NCBI RefSeq assembly: GCF_008000775.2
Contig: NZ_CP042905.2
Location: forward strand, 1,860,001-1,892,000
DNA: 32,000 nucleotides
Origin: Promethearchaeum syntrophicum
Lineage (GTDB): Archaea > Asgardarchaeota > Lokiarchaeia > Sigyniarchaeales > Promethearchaeaceae
Reading direction: 5' to 3'
Each line of letters opens with the position of its first letter. Position 1 is the stretch's first letter. The notes below the pieces were generated by a model. That model worked only from the letters and a program-made list of their open reading frames with translations, was not told the DNA's origin and made no database searches. Both the position numbers and the translations under genes were made by a program. This document shows, in pieces, positions 1,568-8,443 of the stretch.

Positions 1568-3997
1568 ATGAAAACTAAACAATTAAAAAACTTTGGAATT
1601 GCAGTTATTATGATTGCTGTAGTGTTGGGGAGCTTACCAACTCAAGTACTCGCAGGTGTGCCCGGTGATCCTGATGATGATATACCATACGTTTACAGCC
1701 CTTCCATAACAGCGCGGCCAGCAAATGTTATTTATCAGAGAGCAGATCAAGGACAAACTCTATATTGGAAAGCTTATGTTGCAGGTAGTAATAGTCTTAC
1801 GTCTTCTAAACTGCAACGTGATACCACTGGGGGCTCAAGTTATAGCAATTATCTATCTAGAGGCAATTGGGCTGATGGGGTAAATATTGGATATTCTGTT
1901 TCAACTCCAAATATGGTTCCAGGAGCACCTATATGGACTTATAACTATCGATTTTATGCATATAACTCCTACAAGTATGCCTATGATTATGTGACTGTCA
2001 AATATTATTTACCATACTCGGATACTGATGGTGATGGATTAACGGATGGAGAAGAAATTAACACCTACAATACAAATCCTCAAGATGCTGATTCAGATAA
2101 TGATGGATACAATGATCATTTTGAAGCTTTTCTCCAATCTGATCCAAATGATGCGAATAGTCTACCACGTCTCAATGCTCCTTCAATTACAAATAGACCT
2201 GCAAATACTATTTACTGTGAAAATGGACATTCTAAATCATTGACATGGAAAGCAATCGTTAGCGGTCCAAATGATTATACTTCATCATATCTCGATGTCT
2301 ATGATAGTAGTGAAGGAGATTGGGATCGAATTTCGCAAAAGGGGGTATGGCAAGATAGTTCTTCGATTTCTTATGGTATCACTCCACCAAGTATCTCTAC
2401 ATCTTCTTCTCCTGTTAAATTTCAATATAGACTAAGAGTATGGAGCACGTCAAAATCGGCAACTGATTATATTGATGTTTTTGTATATAATTACAACGTA
2501 GATACTGATGGCGATGGATTGACTGATGGGGAAGAAATTAATAGCGGGAATGATGGGTATATAACGAAATATAATAATCCAGACAGCGACTATGATACTT
2601 ACCCAGATAACATCGAAATTGAATTTGGATCGAATCCAATTTCATCTTCAAGTACTCCCAATATCCAAACTCCATTATTCTTTGATAGACCCAGTGATGT
2701 GTTTTACTATGATTTAGCAAGTGCTAGTTCTTTTCAATTAGATTGGGTTATGCAAATACTTTCAGGGACTAATGATTATACTTCTTCTCAATTGCAACGA
2801 TATTATTGGAATGGAGCTGAATTTGTGTTTGATATTGAATTTATAGGGGGTGGATGGCCTGATGTTGAACCGACCATCTCTTTTGATATAGTTAAGCCAA
2901 GTATCCCATCAGATAGTGTTACTCAATGTTATAAGTACAATATGACTGCATGGAATTATGACCAATCAAATTCGGATGAATTTCTTGTGTATTATTATAA
3001 TTATAATGTAGATTCAGACGGAGATGGTTTGAATGATTTCTCTGAAATTAACACTTTTGGCACAGACCCTTTAAATAAAGATTCTGATGACGATTTAGTA
3101 AATGATCTACATGAACTTGCTTATGGTTCAGATCCTTTAGATTCAAATAATAATCTTACAAGATTTTTGCCTACAGAACCATCTCAATCATATTATACTC
3201 CCGATGATCCATCTATACAAGGCAAAATATTTACAGAGCCTATAGTTTTTAATGAAGAAGCAACCTCATGGTGGAATGATGACATGTTAGGAGGTTTTCA
3301 AGTAGGATTTTCAGATGCTGATTTTTCAGAAGATGGAAAAATTTTGCATGAAACTGGAAATCTTTTTGTGGATTTAGAAGTGGAAATTAATCCAGATAAA
3401 GATTTGGATACTTATGATAAACAAAGTTATAATGTAATTGATTCTCTTACTCTATATATGTCTGTTCTTAAAAATGATGATGAATTTCTCTCATTTGAAC
3501 AAATATGTCAAACTTTATCAGGAAATCCTAATCCTAAATTCTCAATAGAAAATGATGAACCAACTCTTTTGGAAAGAATTTCATTTACATTATTATTAGG
3601 AAGTCTAAATTTATTATTCGGTAAAGCTTTTCCGAAATGGAGTTGGATTGAACTTGGGCTTGACTGTGTAGCAGAAGCAGTTCCTGATGGTGAATCAGAT
3701 ATACTTTCATTTAATGATTTAGGAAGTTGTTCTTCGATAACTTATGATTTTTCTGATACAACGAACTTAGGTGAAAGAAGAGATATATATGGTATAAAGA
3801 TGTGTGTAGATTTACTTCATCAGTTTAATTCATTAACATCTATTGCACAAAATGGTGATGTATTTAACTATTTTATGAGGATGGAAGTCGGTATGAAAAA
3901 TTATGAAAAGGAAAATGTTCCTACTGCTTTTTGGGAAAAAAATGGGCCTCTTAGATATAATTATTATGATAATTTTCAATTTATCTATGAAAACTAA
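1568..3997 (+). CDS. Secreted repeat protein with three ~160-aa modules separated by Asp-rich, thrombospondin-type-3-like calcium-binding repeats, plus a unique ~280-aa C-terminal domain
   Basis: N-terminal signal/TM segment (FGIAVIMIAVVLGSLPTQVLA). DTDGDGLTDGEEIN occurs twice and DSDGDGLNDFSEIN once. Each module begins with a PSIT-RPAN-like segment. The nucleotide-level repeats start at ~2021, ~2501 and ~3011. Confidence 0.7.
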   Translation: MKTKQLKNFGIAVIMIAVVLGSLPTQVLAGVPGDPDDDIPYVYSPSITARPANVIYQRADQGQTLYWKAYVAGSNSLTSSKLQRDTTGGSSYSNYLSRGNWADGVNIGYSVSTPNMVPGAPIWTYNYRFYAYNSYKYAYDYVTVKYYLPYSDTDGDGLTDGEEINTYNTNPQDADSDNDGYNDHFEAFLQSDPNDANSLPRLNAPSITNRPANTIYCENGHSKSLTWKAIVSGPNDYTSSYLDVYDSSEGDWDRISQKGVWQDSSSISYGITPPSISTSSSPVKFQYRLRVWSTSKSATDYIDVFVYNYNVDTDGDGLTDGEEINSGNDGYITKYNNPDSDYDTYPDNIEIEFGSNPISSSSTPNIQTPLFFDRPSDVFYYDLASASSFQLDWVMQILSGTNDYTSSQLQRYYWNGAEFVFDIEFIGGGWPDVEPTISFDIVKPSIPSDSVTQCYKYNMTAWNYDQSNSDEFLVYYYNYNVDSDGDGLNDFSEINTFGTDPLNKDSDDDLVNDLHELAYGSDPLDSNNNLTRFLPTEPSQSYYTPDDPSIQGKIFTEPIVFNEEATSWWNDDMLGGFQVGFSDADFSEDGKILHETGNLFVDLEVEINPDKDLDTYDKQSYNVIDSLTLYMSVLKNDDEFLSFEQICQTLSGNPNPKFSIENDEPTLLERISFTLLLGSLNLLFGKAFPKWSWIELGLDCVAEAVPDGESDILSFNDLGSCSSITYDFSDTTNLGERRDIYGIKMCVDLLHQFNSLTSIAQNGDVFNYFMRMEVGMKNYEKENVPTAFWEKNGPLRYNYYDNFQFIYEN

Positions 3998-4068: not shown

Positions 4069-4185
4069 CATTTTTATTTTAAAAAAATTTTCAATAATTT
4101 AACCTATTCACCAAAAAAATCGAAACAAAAAAAATATATAAATTATTCTTGTCTATTTTCACTGAATAATCTCTTTTTCAAAATT

Positions 4186-4255
4186 TATGGCTTCACATCC
4201 TTGCAGGACTCATCTTTCTCGCTCAAAGTTGTGCAGATATCTAATTAAAGCCATA
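4186..4255. repeat. Distal copy (A) of a GC-rich structured repeat shared with 5108-5186
   Basis: 4187-4230 matches 5113-5156 at 41 of 44 positions, in direct orientation. A flanking 8-bp closing helix pairs 4186-4193 (tatggctt) with 4248-4255 (aagccata). Confidence 0.6.
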
Positions 4256-4378
4256 TGAGAATTCTGATGAAAGAATAGAAATTTATTAGTTTTTATTTGG
4301 TCCATAGTAGAATTTTTTAATTAAAATAAAATTAGAGAGTTTTTTTTAATTTGATTTCTATTGTTAATTTAGATAATA

Positions 4379-4618
4379 ATGACTCAAATTTCGATGGATA
4401 AAGATCTGGCAATGGATTTGATTGAATCTAAACTAAGAAACATTAAGAAACAAATCTTAGAGATATTAGGAAAATGGAATCAACCTTCTGCAGAAATTAT
4501 GATTCAATTATCTCGAGATGGGAAACTACCAGAATCTGAAATTGATGCTATTGGATTAACTAATCTTCAAAAAAAAATGTATGAATTAGAGAAATATCAA
4601 CGAAGTTTGGAGGATTAG
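4379..4618 (+). CDS. Small helical protein, a putative partner (antitoxin-like) of the downstream TumE/DUF6516-like gene
   Basis: 79-aa ORF ending 41 nt before the next ORF. The assignment rests on position only. Confidence 0.35.
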   Translation: MTQISMDKDLAMDLIESKLRNIKKQILEILGKWNQPSAEIMIQLSRDGKLPESEIDAIGLTNLQKKMYELEKYQRSLED

Positions 4619-4659: not shown

Positions 4660-5001
4660 TTGTATTCAAATCTTTCAGAATCAATCCTATCTTTTTCTTA
4701 TATTCCTGAGCAAAATCAATTAAGATTTGACCTTAGAAATGGTTCACGTTTATACATCGTATATAATGATTTTGAGGAATATGCTTATCAGTATAATTTC
4801 TCAGATGATCCATTAGATCGTGTTAGATTTGATGCAATGGACAAGAAGTGGGTTGTTCCAACCCCTCCCCATCATTTTCATCCTCGATTTAACAAAAATG
4901 GGTTCCTTAGTCCAATGAACGGAAATCCTTCACATGATATCCCAATTTTAATTAAAATGCTAAAATCTCATGAATTGGAGGACAAAAACTTACAATTCTA
5001 A
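4660..5001 (+). CDS. TumE/DUF6516-like toxin-antitoxin family protein (start codon uncertain; TTG at 4660)
   Basis: The pattern YAYQYNF...RVRFDAMDKKWVVPTPPHHFHP resembles, from memory, the Y-Y...R-DN-pHH...PHHKH signature of the TumE/DUF6516 family. Confidence 0.5.
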   Translation: MYSNLSESILSFSYIPEQNQLRFDLRNGSRLYIVYNDFEEYAYQYNFSDDPLDRVRFDAMDKKWVVPTPPHHFHPRFNKNGFLSPMNGNPSHDIPILIKMLKSHELEDKNLQF

Positions 5002-5059
5002 GAAAAATTGAAACATCCTATCAATTTTATTATAGTTCACTATAAAAATTTTAACAAAG

Positions 5060-5067
5060 AAAAAAAA
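5060..5067. terminator. A8/T8 tract between convergent genes, a possible bidirectional oligo-T terminator
   Basis: The tract reads T8 on the minus strand, about 130 nt after the mvhD stop and downstream of the structured 3' UTR element. Archaeal termination commonly uses oligo-T runs. Confidence 0.35.
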
Positions 5068-5107
5068 TAAAATTTATATTTCTCAATTCCGATTAACTCT
5101 ATTTCCA

Positions 5108-5186
5108 AATATATGGGTTCTCATCCTTGCAGGACTCATCCTTCTCGCTCAAAGTTTGTAGCTCAAATTCATCTGTACCATATATT
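5108..5186 (-). promoter_or_regulatory. Structured 3' UTR element of the hdrA-mvhD operon, a candidate SECIS (proximal copy B of the repeat)
   Basis: The element starts 12 nt after the mvhD stop. A 9-bp closing helix pairs 5108-5116 (aatatatgg) with 5178-5186 (ccatatatt). On the minus strand an AUGA (5172-5169) lies on the 5' side and GAGA (5122-5119) on the 3' side. The core is GC-rich in an AT-rich intergenic region. Confidence 0.45.
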
Positions 5187-5197
5187 GTATTCTCATA

Positions 5198-5695
5198 TCA
5201 TTTTCCTTTTACGGATTTTTCCTTTGCTTTCGCTGCTTTCTTTGCTGCGGCTTTCGCTGCAGCATCTTGCTGATACAACCGAATTTTTGAAGGTCCAAGT
5301 TTCCGAATAGTCTGATCCATTTTCGTCGTTAACTGTCTGAACCGTTCACCCTCGGCAGCTGAAAAGAACATCATCTGAATGCGCTCGCGTTCTTCTTTTC
5401 CAACCATGGTTTCCAGAATATCTTGAATGTAGAAAACCAGGTTCCTGGCATATAAATTACCTTGAACGTAGTCGCACTCTCCGACATGTCAGCCACCGAT
5501 GATTACTCCGTCAGCACCTTTATTAAAAGCACGCATTATCATATCGGAAGAAACCCGCGCTGTGCACATAACTCGAACTGGACGAATGCTGGTAGGATAC
5601 TGCGCCCGGATTGTTCCGGCCATATCACATGCCCCGTAACCTCATTTCCAGCACAGAAAAGCGATGATTCGTGGTTCGAAATTTTCATCTGTCAT
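5198..5695 (-). CDS. mvhD: MvhD/VhuD-type hydrogenase delta-subunit-like iron-sulfur protein carrying two in-frame TGA (selenocysteine) codons
   Basis: ATG at 5695 is in frame with track ORF 5198..5407. My translation is MTDENFEPRIIAFLCWK[TGA]GYGACDMAG...RVMCTARV...GADGVIIGG[TGA]HVGECDYVQGN. The TGA codons at 5644-5642 and 5491-5489 fall where the family has Cys (CNWC and GCH). Confidence 0.85.
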
Positions 5696-5706: not shown

Positions 5707-7692
5707 TTATGATTCTGTTTCTTCAACAAATAGTGCGTCTTCCAATATGCCGTCTATTAAATCGAAGTATTGCTCATCACGATAATATCGTAATGTAATC
5801 GCTTCGCTCGGACAGACAGCAACGCATAGTCCACAACCCCTGCATAAAATATCATCAACAATTGCGCCTTTTTCTTGAGTAATTCTAATCGCGCCATATG
5901 GGCAACTTTTTTCACACATTCCGCATCTTGCACACTTATTCGGATCGGAAATAGCTCGGATGAGTTTTATCCGGTATTCGCCATTCGAAAGAAGCTTTAC
6001 AATCGAGGATGAAGCGCCTTTGGCTTGCATAATTGTTTCGGATATCGCTTTAGGGGCATGGCATGCGCCTGCTAACGAAATTCCTGGGACATCTGTATCA
6101 ACTGTGTTTAATCGCTGGTGGAACTCTTTAAGGAATCCGCTGGGATGTTTTGAAATATTAAGAGTTTTATTAAGTTTATCAAATGTGCGTGAGGGCATCA
6201 TAGCCGCCGATAAAACAACCATATCAAATGTATATTCTTTGATTGTTTTATCTGGACTTAGAGTGTCTTCAAGTACTACTTTTAGGCTCTTAGTTTTCGG
6301 ATCTTCTCTGATACGGCCTACTTTTGAACGAATATATTTTACACCTTCTCGACGTGAGGCGGTGTAATATTCTTCATAACCTTTTCCTGCTGCACGAATA
6401 TCAATATACGCAACCATTACTTGAAGCGATGGGTCGTGTGATTTTACTAGTTTAGAATTTTTTATACTAATCATACAACACACACCACTTGAGCAATATT
6501 CGTTTCTATTGATATCCCTTGACCCGACACATTGCACGAATAGAATGCTTTTTGGTGTTTTTGCATCAGATGGTCGGACGAGATGTCCAACAACAGGACC
6601 GTTAGGTGCAATCATCCGTTCTAAGGTTAATTGGGTTATGACATTTTCATATTGATCATATCCCAAATAGCCGTATTCAGGTTCGTATTCATCCCAACCT
6701 GTAGCTATGATAATACCTCCAACTTTGACTGAGAACTTCGTATCTTTTTGTTCATAATCAACCGCTTTAAGCTCGCAAACATTGGCACAATTTCCACAAA
6801 GAATACAATGGTCCATGTCAATTTGAGCAACCATCGGAACTGCTTGAGCGAATGAATAGTAGATAGCTCTGCGGGGTCCAAGTCCCATATCGAATTCACT
6901 TGGGACTATTGCAGGACACACGTCAAAACATGCTCCACATCCATTACAATCATTTTTTGTATATCGGGCTTTTTGTAAAATCTCCACTTCGAAGTTTCCA
7001 ACATAACCACTTATTTTTGTTACTTCGGAGAGGGTAAATAACTCGATATTTTCATTCCGTTGAGTTTCTAACATGACAGGACCTAAGATTCAGATACTAC
7101 AATCGTCTGTGGGGAATGTTCGGTCAAGCATTGACATTTTACCACCAATCGTAGGCTTTTGCTCTACTAAGTACACTTTGTGTCCTTGGTTTGCTAAGTC
7201 TAGGGCTGATTGTAAACCTCCTACTCCTCCACCGATAACTAGTACTGCATCTGTTACCGGGACGACTCTTTCGGGTACCATTTCGAGTTTAGCTGCTCGC
7301 GCAACACCTGCTCGAATTTGTTCTTTTGCCATATCTAAGGCTTTCGGTTGTTCTTTCTGATGAACAAAGCTTACATGTTCTCTGATGTTGACGAACTCCA
7401 GGTATGATGGATCCATTCCACAGTCCGTTAAAACTGCCTGAAAGACTGGTTCATGGGTTTTGGGAGTTCAAGCCGCGATAACTACACGGTTTAGATCATT
7501 ATCCTTAATATATTTTTTAAGGAAATCAGCACCTGATGTAGTTCAAAGAGAGATATTCTTGTCAGCTATTATTACATTTGGTAAAGTCTTGCTAAACCTT
7601 ACCAATTCGTCCATATCAAGAACGCCAGCTATATTAACACCGCATGAGCAAGGAAAAACCCCAATTCTAACTTCTTCGGGATTATCGCTCAT
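5707..7692 (-). CDS. hdrA: Heterodisulfide reductase subunit A (HdrA), 661 codons, with three in-frame TGA (selenocysteine) codons
   Basis: ATG at 7692 is in frame with track ORFs 7090..7416 and 5707..7074. The TGA codons lie at 7545-7543, 7470-7468 and 7092-7090. Motifs present: GVFPCSCG, the FAD-binding VLVIGGGVGGLQSAL, FPTDDCSI[TGA]ILGP, and four CxxCxxCxxxCP ferredoxin motifs. Confidence 0.9.
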
Positions 7693-8443
7693 TGTCAATT
7701 TATACCGTGTTAGTTCTTAAATATTGAAAGAATACTACTGAATTCTTTTTCATCCATCATCGGAATTACTCCCTAATTTTTCCATTGTTAGAGAGACCTC
7801 ACTCCAAATCATCGGATAATATTTGAGTTTACCAATCTTTTTTTCTATAATAACGCAACTTAAACTTAAGTTTTGTTATTACCTATGTTAATGTGAGAAT
7901 AAATCCACAATGATACATTTCATTCATATTCTGTAAAATAGTGCATTTTTTCCACAAAAGCATAAAGTTTTGATAAACTTTCAATGAAAAATATAATGAA
8001 AAAAAGTTTAATTATCTTTACACTAGAAAAAATAATAACAAGTGTGAAAAAAATTAAATAATTAATTTGAGATTCAATAACAATTCTCTTACATGTTTTT
8101 TAGTCGATTTGAAGATTATATTTTCTTGATAATTAATTAGAAATCTATTATATATGCCATGAATTTTATCGGTAGAAGTGTTAAGAAGGAAATACAAGAT
8201 TTGTTATGTATTAACATCATTATTAAAAACCAAAACTTTTAGAAATTGGTTTATGTATAATGTATATTCAAAATATAGAAGAAATAAAGAAATAAATCAT
8301 TTTTAGTGTGAAGCATATAAAATTAACTATTACTTACTGGATTTGATAGAAATGTACCATATGATTTTATAAAAAACATAATTATGTTTTAATCATCAAA
8401 AATTTCGATTTTTGATTAAAGTAAAAAAAAAATGTGAAATGAA

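Follow-up and report, generated by a model that had tools for sequence, protein, structure and literature searches.

A probable three-way-junction lokiSECIS downstream of the hdrA-mvhD selenoprotein genes of Promethearchaeum syntrophicum

The hdrA-mvhD genes and the element that follows them

We analysed a stretch of 32,000 nucleotides from Promethearchaeum syntrophicum (NZ_CP042905.2, positions 1,860,001 to 1,892,000 of the forward strand), here called the window, to whose first letter all coordinates refer. Our subject is an element of its minus strand, running from 5186 to 5108 just beyond the selenoprotein genes hdrA and mvhD, which in all likelihood is the selenocysteine insertion sequence (SECIS) of this operon in strain MK-D1 and belongs to the type known as lokiSECIS. 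The genes and their UGA codons, with those read as selenocysteine (Sec) marked as such, are:

5707..7692, minus strand: hdrA, 661 codons and a UAA stop (translation; Pfam Fer4/FAD domains)
7545-7543, 7470-7468 and 7092-7090, minus strand: Sec UGA codons 50, 75 and 201 of hdrA (translation)
5198..5695, minus strand: mvhD (also vhuD or frhD), 165 codons (PF02662, FlpD, 1e-41)
5644-5642 and 5491-5489, minus strand: Sec UGA codons 18 and 69 of mvhD (translation)
5200-5198, minus strand: terminal UGA stop of mvhD

A spacer of 11 nt separates the two genes, of which hdrA has three in-frame UGAs and mvhD two, placed at conserved Cys/Sec positions. Both products have already been catalogued as selenoproteins, under the names HdrA and FrhD, from GCA_008000775.1, the assembly of Ca. 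Prometheoarchaeum syntrophicum MK-D1 (CP042905.1) (Huang 2024, PMC11227280). The HdrA of the window is 100% identical to the 'Lokiarchaeia_GCA_008000775_U' entry in the supplementary sequence files of Huang 2024, and its MvhD is residue-for-residue identical to the FrhD of GCA_008000775 in the same files. Sec, written as X in these HdrA and FrhD entries, occupies the same positions as the UGAs of the window (Huang et al. 2024, PMC11227280), and the files contain one Sec-form HdrA/FrhD pair only for the MK-D1 genome (PMC11227280). All five UGAs and the UAA stop of hdrA are kept in L001 and L002, two loci from Promethearchaeum spp. with 93-94% protein identity. Relative to these two loci, respectively, synonymous codon differences outnumber non-synonymous ones by 139:35 and 129:21 in hdrA, and by 48:8 and 57:7 in mvhD; the excess holds on both sides of the UGAs in both genes and points to purifying selection downstream of every UGA. 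Because the UGAs are conserved and synonymous changes far exceed non-synonymous ones, the codon comparison indicates that the UGAs of hdrA and mvhD are translated through. No tRNA or tRNA-Sec gene was found in the window.

Downstream of mvhD, GC makes up 38% of positions 5108-5186, compared with 19% for the remainder of the spacer and 29% (28.9%) for the window as a whole. The element begins at the 12th nucleotide past the mvhD stop (5186), with AAUAUAUGG (5186-5178) fully complementary to CCAUAUAUU (5116-5108) and 61 nt enclosed between them. The mvhD stop UGA is 28 nt from an AUGA motif within the element, and the farthest of the five Sec UGAs is at a distance of 2373 nt from this motif. The initial annotation of this DNA had drawn attention to the GC-rich island and its 9-bp helix (5108-5116/5178-5186), to the strings UACAG-AUGA-AUUU (5177-5165) and GGAU-GA-GAAC (5126-5117), to a T8 (U8 in the RNA) tract at 5067-5060, to the 11-nt gap between the genes and to five UGAs up to about 2.4 kb upstream, and all of these readings agree with the sequence. 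The helix and the strings by themselves are not beyond chance: the window has 85 perfect inverted-repeat seeds of 9 bp (loops of 3-80 nt), against 55 +/- 10 in dinucleotide shuffles. It is because of conservation and covariation in relatives that the element rises above chance.

Fold of the element and its recurrence in related loci

The clade alignment is a sequence-only MAFFT alignment of the window element with those of its six closest relatives (seven sequences in all), which are L001 and L002, L003, L004 (Harpocratesius), L005 (Lokiarchaeum ossiferum) and L006. Read 5' to 3', and with counts drawn from these seven relatives or from a larger set of 106 aligned elements described below, the parts of the element are:

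5178..5186, minus strand: helix I, 5' strand, AAUAUAUGG; perfect complement of 5116-5108, with four of nine pairs compensatory and 94% pairing in the seven relatives
5173..5177, minus strand: 5' internal loop UACAG, with the clade consensus NNCAR (clade alignment)
5169..5172, minus strand: AUGA, 5' half of the SECIS core, probably part of a sheared quartet; invariant in the clade alignment, and AUGA in 104-106 of the 106 elements
5160..5168, minus strand: helix II, 5' strand, A5168 and UUUGAGCU; in the RNAalifold consensus, with seven of eight pairs compensatory, and in the minimum free energy (MFE) fold
5150..5159, minus strand: apical loop ACAAACUUUG of 10 nt, with AAA at loop positions 3-5 (106 of 106) and a terminal G (105 of 106)
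5141..5149, minus strand: helix II, 3' strand, AGCGAGAA and G5141 (RNAalifold, pair counts, covariance model)
5139..5140, minus strand: proximal GA, 3' half of the SECIS core; invariant in 7/7 relatives, and G/A-A in 105-106 of 106
5136..5138, minus strand: linker UGA
5123..5135, minus strand: hairpin B, the third helix, GUCCU-GCA-AGGAU; 100% paired in the seven relatives, with one G-U/A-U change
5117..5122, minus strand: 3' linker GAGAAC, including a distal GA (5122-5121) that is variable in the relatives
5108..5116, minus strand: helix I, 3' strand, CCAUAUAUU (complementarity, covariation)
5060..5067, minus strand: U8 tract, a probable archaeal oligo-U terminator; comparable U-rich tracts stand downstream of the element in L001 and L002 and in the PrxL loci introduced below

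RNAalifold recovered helix I, helix II and hairpin B from the seven-sequence alignment and no other helix, and both the MFE and the centroid folds of the window sequence itself hold the same three helices. Standard pairs occupy 91% of the cells, and compensatory changes are seen at 11 of the 21 pairs, with four of nine in helix I, seven of eight in helix II and none in hairpin B, where there is G-U/A-U variation only. The observed pairing and compensation were reached by 0 of 500 shuffles, and slid partners pair in 27-45% of cells. Within helix II, the pairs 5167-5160/5149-5142 are U-A, U-A, U-G, G.A, A.G, G-C, C-G and U-A, the tandem G.A/A.G being formed by G5164 and A5163 with A5145 and G5146, while A5168 at the base faces G5141 and is either unpaired or in an A.G pair. 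We conclude that the element is very probably a three-way junction, in which helix I closes the structure, the core is continued by helix II, and hairpin B is set within the 3' strand. The AUGA/GA core would be joined by sheared G.A/A.G pairs, resulting in a kink.

The wider sample of mvhD comprises 80 Asgard loci obtained by scanning GTDB species genomes with the MvhD protein, all of which contain UGA, with no cysteine form among them; in-frame stops are present at two Sec positions in 78 and at one in the other 2. The succession of AUGA, nine stem positions, an A-rich loop of ~11 nt ending in G, and GA was found in 79 of the 80 loci, starting within 60 nt of the stop in 78 of those 79, and no further lokiSECIS was found in the 80 loci outside the mvhD 3' untranslated region (UTR). 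These elements fall into three sequence classes, namely alpha (helix I AUGUGUU/AACACAU), beta (helix I CCGAA/UUCGG) and the clade of the window. As the three classes could not be co-aligned by MAFFT, we used within-class alignments, a parser and a structure-guided alignment; RNAalifold on mixed or shifted alignments recovered only helix II, with or without hairpin B. In the MAFFT alignment of the alpha class, helix I is 96% paired with three compensatory pairs, and hairpin B is an invariant AUGG/CCAU, while for the beta class RNAalifold predicts hairpin B with an A-U/U-A/U-G switch. The parser, which was controlled with shuffled flanks, looks for a hairpin 0-6 nt from the GA, together with a helix in which the 5' flank pairs with the nucleotides immediately past that hairpin. 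It recognises the three-helix layout in the window and in 79 of the 80 mvhD loci; scores average 20.3, as against 6.4 +/- 6.4 for the shuffled flanks, and 90% of the mvhD loci score above the 95th percentile of this null.

The same layout was recovered from an unrelated family, the peroxiredoxin-like selenoprotein PrxL, for which 45 metagenomic Lokiarchaeal loci were fetched, 29 of them distinct. One such 3' UTR reads ACCCC-UUUAUGG-AUGA-(helix II)-GA-C-AACCUU-GCU-AAGGUU-GGGGU. The parser finds the layout in all 29 loci (mean 20.7 against 8.5 +/- 6.3 in shuffles), 22 of which exceed the null 95th percentile, and a covariance model of the three-helix structure that was built from the mvhD elements of L003-L006 only, with the window left out (CM R2), matches five PrxL elements with E values of 0.004-0.05. 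The stem sequences of hairpin B differ between classes: the MK-D1 clade, PrxL and one mvhD class share the consensus ACCUU-GCA-AGGU, and the alpha class has AUGG-GWGCA-CCAU. In a structure-guided alignment of 106 distinct elements, in which the pairing of helix I and hairpin B is by construction and helix II was delimited by geometry alone, three to six standard pair types occur at every helix position, and positions 2-9 of helix II are 88-99% paired. Because the mvhD and PrxL elements both have them, these comparisons indicate that the closing helix and the third hairpin belong to lokiSECIS in general. That the third hairpin might be confined to the multi-UGA hdrA-mvhD operon is contradicted by its presence in PrxL elements.

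Several individual loci depart from the common form. In L007 (2022-2102), which has one in-frame UGA in mvhD, the element is ~190 nt past the stop, ends in AA rather than GA and was not placed by the parser. The mvhD stop UGA is itself the UGA of the core AUGA in six loci (L032, L047, L051, L053, L060 and L071), and helix I of many beta-class loci has its 5' strand within the last mvhD codons; overlap of stop and SECIS has been noted for VhuU.1 only (Mariotti 2016, PMC4989117). Two PrxL elements, situated ~20-30 nt past the stop (L081 and L083), have the core AGGA in place of AUGA with other features intact, a variant not listed in the lokiSECIS and Asgard SECIS literature that we compared. 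Finally, six alpha-class elements (L011, L024, L026, L043, L058 and L061) have a single bulged U or C in the 3' strand of helix II after the sixth pair, because of which the '9-bp stem' amounts to 9 bp plus a bulge in this subgroup.

Identity of the element and competing explanations

The lokiSECIS, described from HdrA-VhuD, VhuU and PrxL genes of Lokiarchaeota, was defined as AUGA, a stem of precisely 9 bp, a loop of 11 nt with the first five A-rich and the last a G, and then GA, or AA in VhuU (Mariotti 2016, PMC4989117). It is located near the stop, and every HdrA-VhuD pair has a single copy, after VhuD, which on the authors' reading would act on as many as six UGAs of a polycistronic mRNA across ~2 kb (PMC4989117). 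The stop of VhuD may be UGA, being too near the element, and those of HdrA are always UAA or UAG (PMC4989117). The element in the window corresponds to this description in its position past the mvhD stop, in being the one element of its gene pair, in its AUGA and GA, in its nine stem positions and in its A-rich loop ending in G; A occupies four of the first five positions of the loop ACAAACUUUG, and the terminal G is present. Likewise, hdrA ends in UAA and mvhD in UGA, as the published pattern allows. The window carries every nucleotide that is invariant over the 106 aligned elements, namely the AUGA, AAA at positions 3-5 of the loop, the G that ends the loop and the GA. With CM R2 the window gives a single strong match, of 70.1 bits (E 4e-16), at 5109-5185(-). 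The canonical lokiSECIS pattern was not found elsewhere in the window; neither the 11 nt between hdrA and mvhD nor the rest of the operon contains anything comparable to the element, and no other significant candidate was seen in the operon or beside it. The initial annotation had referred to eukaryote-like SECIS elements reported for Lokiarchaeal genes, which are the published lokiSECIS type (Mariotti 2016), and had supposed that one element would serve both genes; it is indeed the sole credible SECIS for the five UGAs, in line with the shared SECIS of that study.

A number of observations weigh against this identification. Helix II has six standard pairs over its nine positions, the others being the basal A.G and the tandem G.A/A.G, as against the published 9 bp, and the loop has 10 rather than 11 nt. 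Asgard elements have been generalised into 'eSECIS-like' types I and II over >400 genomes (Huang 2024, PMC11227280), type I being described by a GA_[G/A]A core, an upper stem of 7-15 bp with no more than two mismatches and an apical loop of 8-20 nt (PMC11227280); the core and loop length of the window element fit, and the stem, with three non-standard pairs in nine, does not do so literally. Taken to the letter, then, both the 9-bp stem (Mariotti 2016) and the limit of two mismatches (Huang 2024) exclude it. In a scan with a simple descriptor (AUGA, 9 bp, loop, GA, no more than 1-2 mismatches), neither the window element nor those of its two closest relatives are detected, and at looser settings the true site is indistinguishable from AT-rich noise. 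A covariance model made from 25 elements of the commonest paralogue class, alpha (CM R1), aligns the window element over its full length with 10.1 bits (E 1.8), which is within noise; this model is significant only for its own class (37 loci) and scores neither the window nor the beta class significantly. Rfam yielded no SECIS or credible family, whether the gathering threshold was applied or, around the site, matches with E <= 10 were admitted. The folding z-score is unremarkable, at 0.02 for 5090-5200 of the minus strand and -1.28 for the element alone.

With respect to the stem, the basal position is unpaired in 45% of the aligned elements, and because a basal mismatch is so commonplace it is the tandem G.A/A.G that constitutes the real deviation. 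This tandem is common to the three Promethearchaeum genomes (window, L001 and L002), whose sole stem difference, U or C opposite G, keeps the pairing. The initial annotation had been prepared to abandon the element for want of a significant hit or stable fold, a test that would have misled because the Rfam search is blank and the z-score unremarkable. Two of its grounds for refutation thus tell against the element, which is rescued because of the comparative evidence.

As to the fold, the initial annotation was right to take the AUGA at 5172-5169 as the core and the 9-bp helix as a lower stem; its choice of GA was mistaken, and it overlooked the third hairpin. It paired the AUGA with the distal GA (5122-5121) and set AUUU/GGAU at the base of a long helix II with one large apical domain, as in a type-II-like SECIS. 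The four pairs in question are possible in the window, and 82% of their cells pair across the seven relatives. When constrained, this fold reaches -10.7 against -13.6 kcal/mol for the MFE, about 3 worse, and it could be a minor conformer, which is a further point to be set against the three-helix fold. However, the distal dinucleotide is GA in four of the seven closest relatives, GU in two and GC in one; the 4-bp helix is without compensatory change; and GGAU is invariant as the 3' strand of hairpin B, to which it belongs. The other mvhD classes and the PrxL elements have no counterpart of this pairing, all having the proximal GA and hairpin B, and its 30-nt apical region matches neither published type. 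The alignments do not support this fold as the conserved functional core, and we regard it as very unlikely.

Less probable still is that the element is a generic structure of the mRNA 3' end, such as a stabiliser or terminator hairpin unrelated to Sec, with Sec decoding steered by another signal or the UGAs read in some other way. The U-tract directly downstream, in the window and in its relatives, would suit such a role, as would the weak thermodynamic signal. Yet, the invariant nucleotides (AUGA, AAA, GA) are those of a SECIS core and loop and not of a terminator, the same architecture stands right after the stop of the unrelated selenoprotein family PrxL, and there is no other SECIS candidate in or near the hdrA-mvhD operon. 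Least probable of all is a decaying, non-functional SECIS, its helix II degenerate in the MK-D1 lineage and the operon on its way to pseudogenes, since against the six standard pairs of helix II, the loop shorter by 1 nt, the failure of the paralogue-class model to score it and a local rearrangement with a degenerate second copy (described next) stand the retention of helix II with its tandem G.A/A.G in L001 and L002, the U to C change opposite G that preserves pairing, the stability of tandem sheared G.A as a motif that is also retained in the MFE fold, the strong purifying selection on both genes downstream of every UGA, and the status of this operon as the only Sec-form HdrA/FrhD pair of MK-D1.

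The rearrangement concerns a second, partial occurrence of the element:

4183..4256, minus strand: degenerate second copy of the element (CM R2, 22.3 bits, E 1.3e-3)

A direct repeat of 65 nt, 88% identical, connects 4166-4230 with 5092-5156 at a spacing of 926 nt, and a further one connects 4123-4136 with 5056-5069. In the second copy the 3' half (the end of the loop, the 3' strand of helix II, GA, hairpin B and the 3' strand of helix I) is nearly verbatim; the 5' half is diverged, with AUUA replacing AUGA, and a U-tract of its own follows. The first copy and its flank match L002, while the second copy and its flank match L001, each of these genomes having a single copy. Because the flanks match separately, we infer that ~0.9 kb was inserted here (or lost elsewhere), with duplication of ~100 nt comprising the 3' half of the SECIS and the terminator, an arrangement that resembles the duplication of an att site. 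Between the copies are two small genes convergent to mvhD, at 4379-4618 (+) and 4660-5001 (+). The 113-aa product has a weak match to the TumE toxin family (PF20126, 22.6 bits against a cutoff of 23.4), and the 79-aa product of the upstream gene has no Pfam match; the two genes may form a toxin-antitoxin cassette that came with the insertion. Elsewhere around the operon, hdrA is preceded by a very AT-rich spacer of ~750 nt without a notable open reading frame (7693-8443), neither hdrBC nor mvhAG is adjacent to hdrA-mvhD within the window, and the neighbouring genes encode a TSP3-repeat protein (1568-3997) and products of unassigned function.

Relation to other SECIS elements and significance

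The lokiSECIS has been described as a single stem-loop with a loosely defined 'lower stem' and 'internal loop', whereas in the element described here helix I closes over a conserved third hairpin. Mariotti 2016, Huang 2024 and a 2026 review make no mention, in their main texts, of a third hairpin or a three-way junction, a comparison that did not cover the supplementary SECIS drawings, and a literature search returned no paper combining SECIS, Asgard and 'three-way junction'. The likeness to the eukaryotic SECIS (Rfam SECIS_1, RF00031, the kink-turn bound by SBP2) extends to the site in the 3' UTR, the service of several UGAs at a distance, and the order of helix I, internal loop, AUGA..GA quartet, helix II and unpaired apical A's. 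In contrast, the eukaryotic helix II has ~12-15 positions against nine here, the extra hairpin in the 3' internal loop sets the present element apart, and there is no Rfam match. SBP2 itself was not found in Asgard archaea (Mariotti 2016, PMC4989117; Huang 2024, PMC11227280). The euryarchaeal SECIS lies in the 3' UTR of the same gene and likewise has an AUGA motif and an additional lower stem, but its GAA_A bulge and GC-rich upper stem are both absent from the present element.

In its secondary-structure topology the element also conforms to the k-junction of thiamine pyrophosphate (TPP) riboswitches (Wang, Daldrop, Huang, Lilley 2014, PMC4005666), with helix I corresponding to the canonical (C) helix, G.A/A.G plus helix II to the non-canonical (NC) helix, and hairpin B to the third helix, and with a loop on the 5' strand in both. 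This is an analogy of topology only, with no sequence relationship, and in the present element the third helix adjoins linkers of 1-6 nt. In three dimensions k-junctions are kinked, with cross-strand A-minor hydrogen bonds and a third helix that stacks coaxially on the C helix. The k-junction paper is cited by Huang 2024 for GA_AA pairs only (PMC11227280).

These features suggest a scheme for decoding. The hdrA and mvhD genes would be carried on one mRNA ending at the U8 tract, and the junction would present the kinked AUGA/GA core and the A-rich loop, by analogy with the eukaryotic SECIS and the lokiSECIS model. A factor binding the folded element, possibly of the L7Ae/L30 family, would link it to EFSec and Sec-tRNASec, and the five UGAs 0.3-2.4 kb upstream would thereby be decoded as Sec. 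The terminal UGA of mvhD would be spared and act as a stop because its distance to the core, 28 nt, is too short for recoding, which fits the published minimal-distance argument (Mariotti 2016, PMC4989117); a ribosome on this UGA would cover or melt helix I.

As a discovery, the element is ordinary, in that a Lokiarchaeal SECIS of eukaryote-like type serving both hdrA and mvhD has been in the literature since 2016, and the genes were catalogued in 2024. What we put forward tentatively as both real and undescribed is that the Lokiarchaeal SECIS is a three-way junction of k-junction topology, with a conserved third hairpin, in at least two unrelated selenoprotein families. As helix II does not conform to the published descriptors, elements of this clade may be missed by scans that rely on them, and since MK-D1 is a cultured Asgard archaeon, a precisely mapped element is directly testable in it. 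The third hairpin and closing helix seen in mvhD and PrxL would refine the model behind the descent of the eukaryotic SECIS from that of Asgard archaea, with the hairpin, if the proposal is true, being a structure later lost by the eukaryotic SECIS. It would likewise be a candidate docking site for an archaeal SECIS-binding factor, and the junction model may offer a concrete handle for finding this missing protein.

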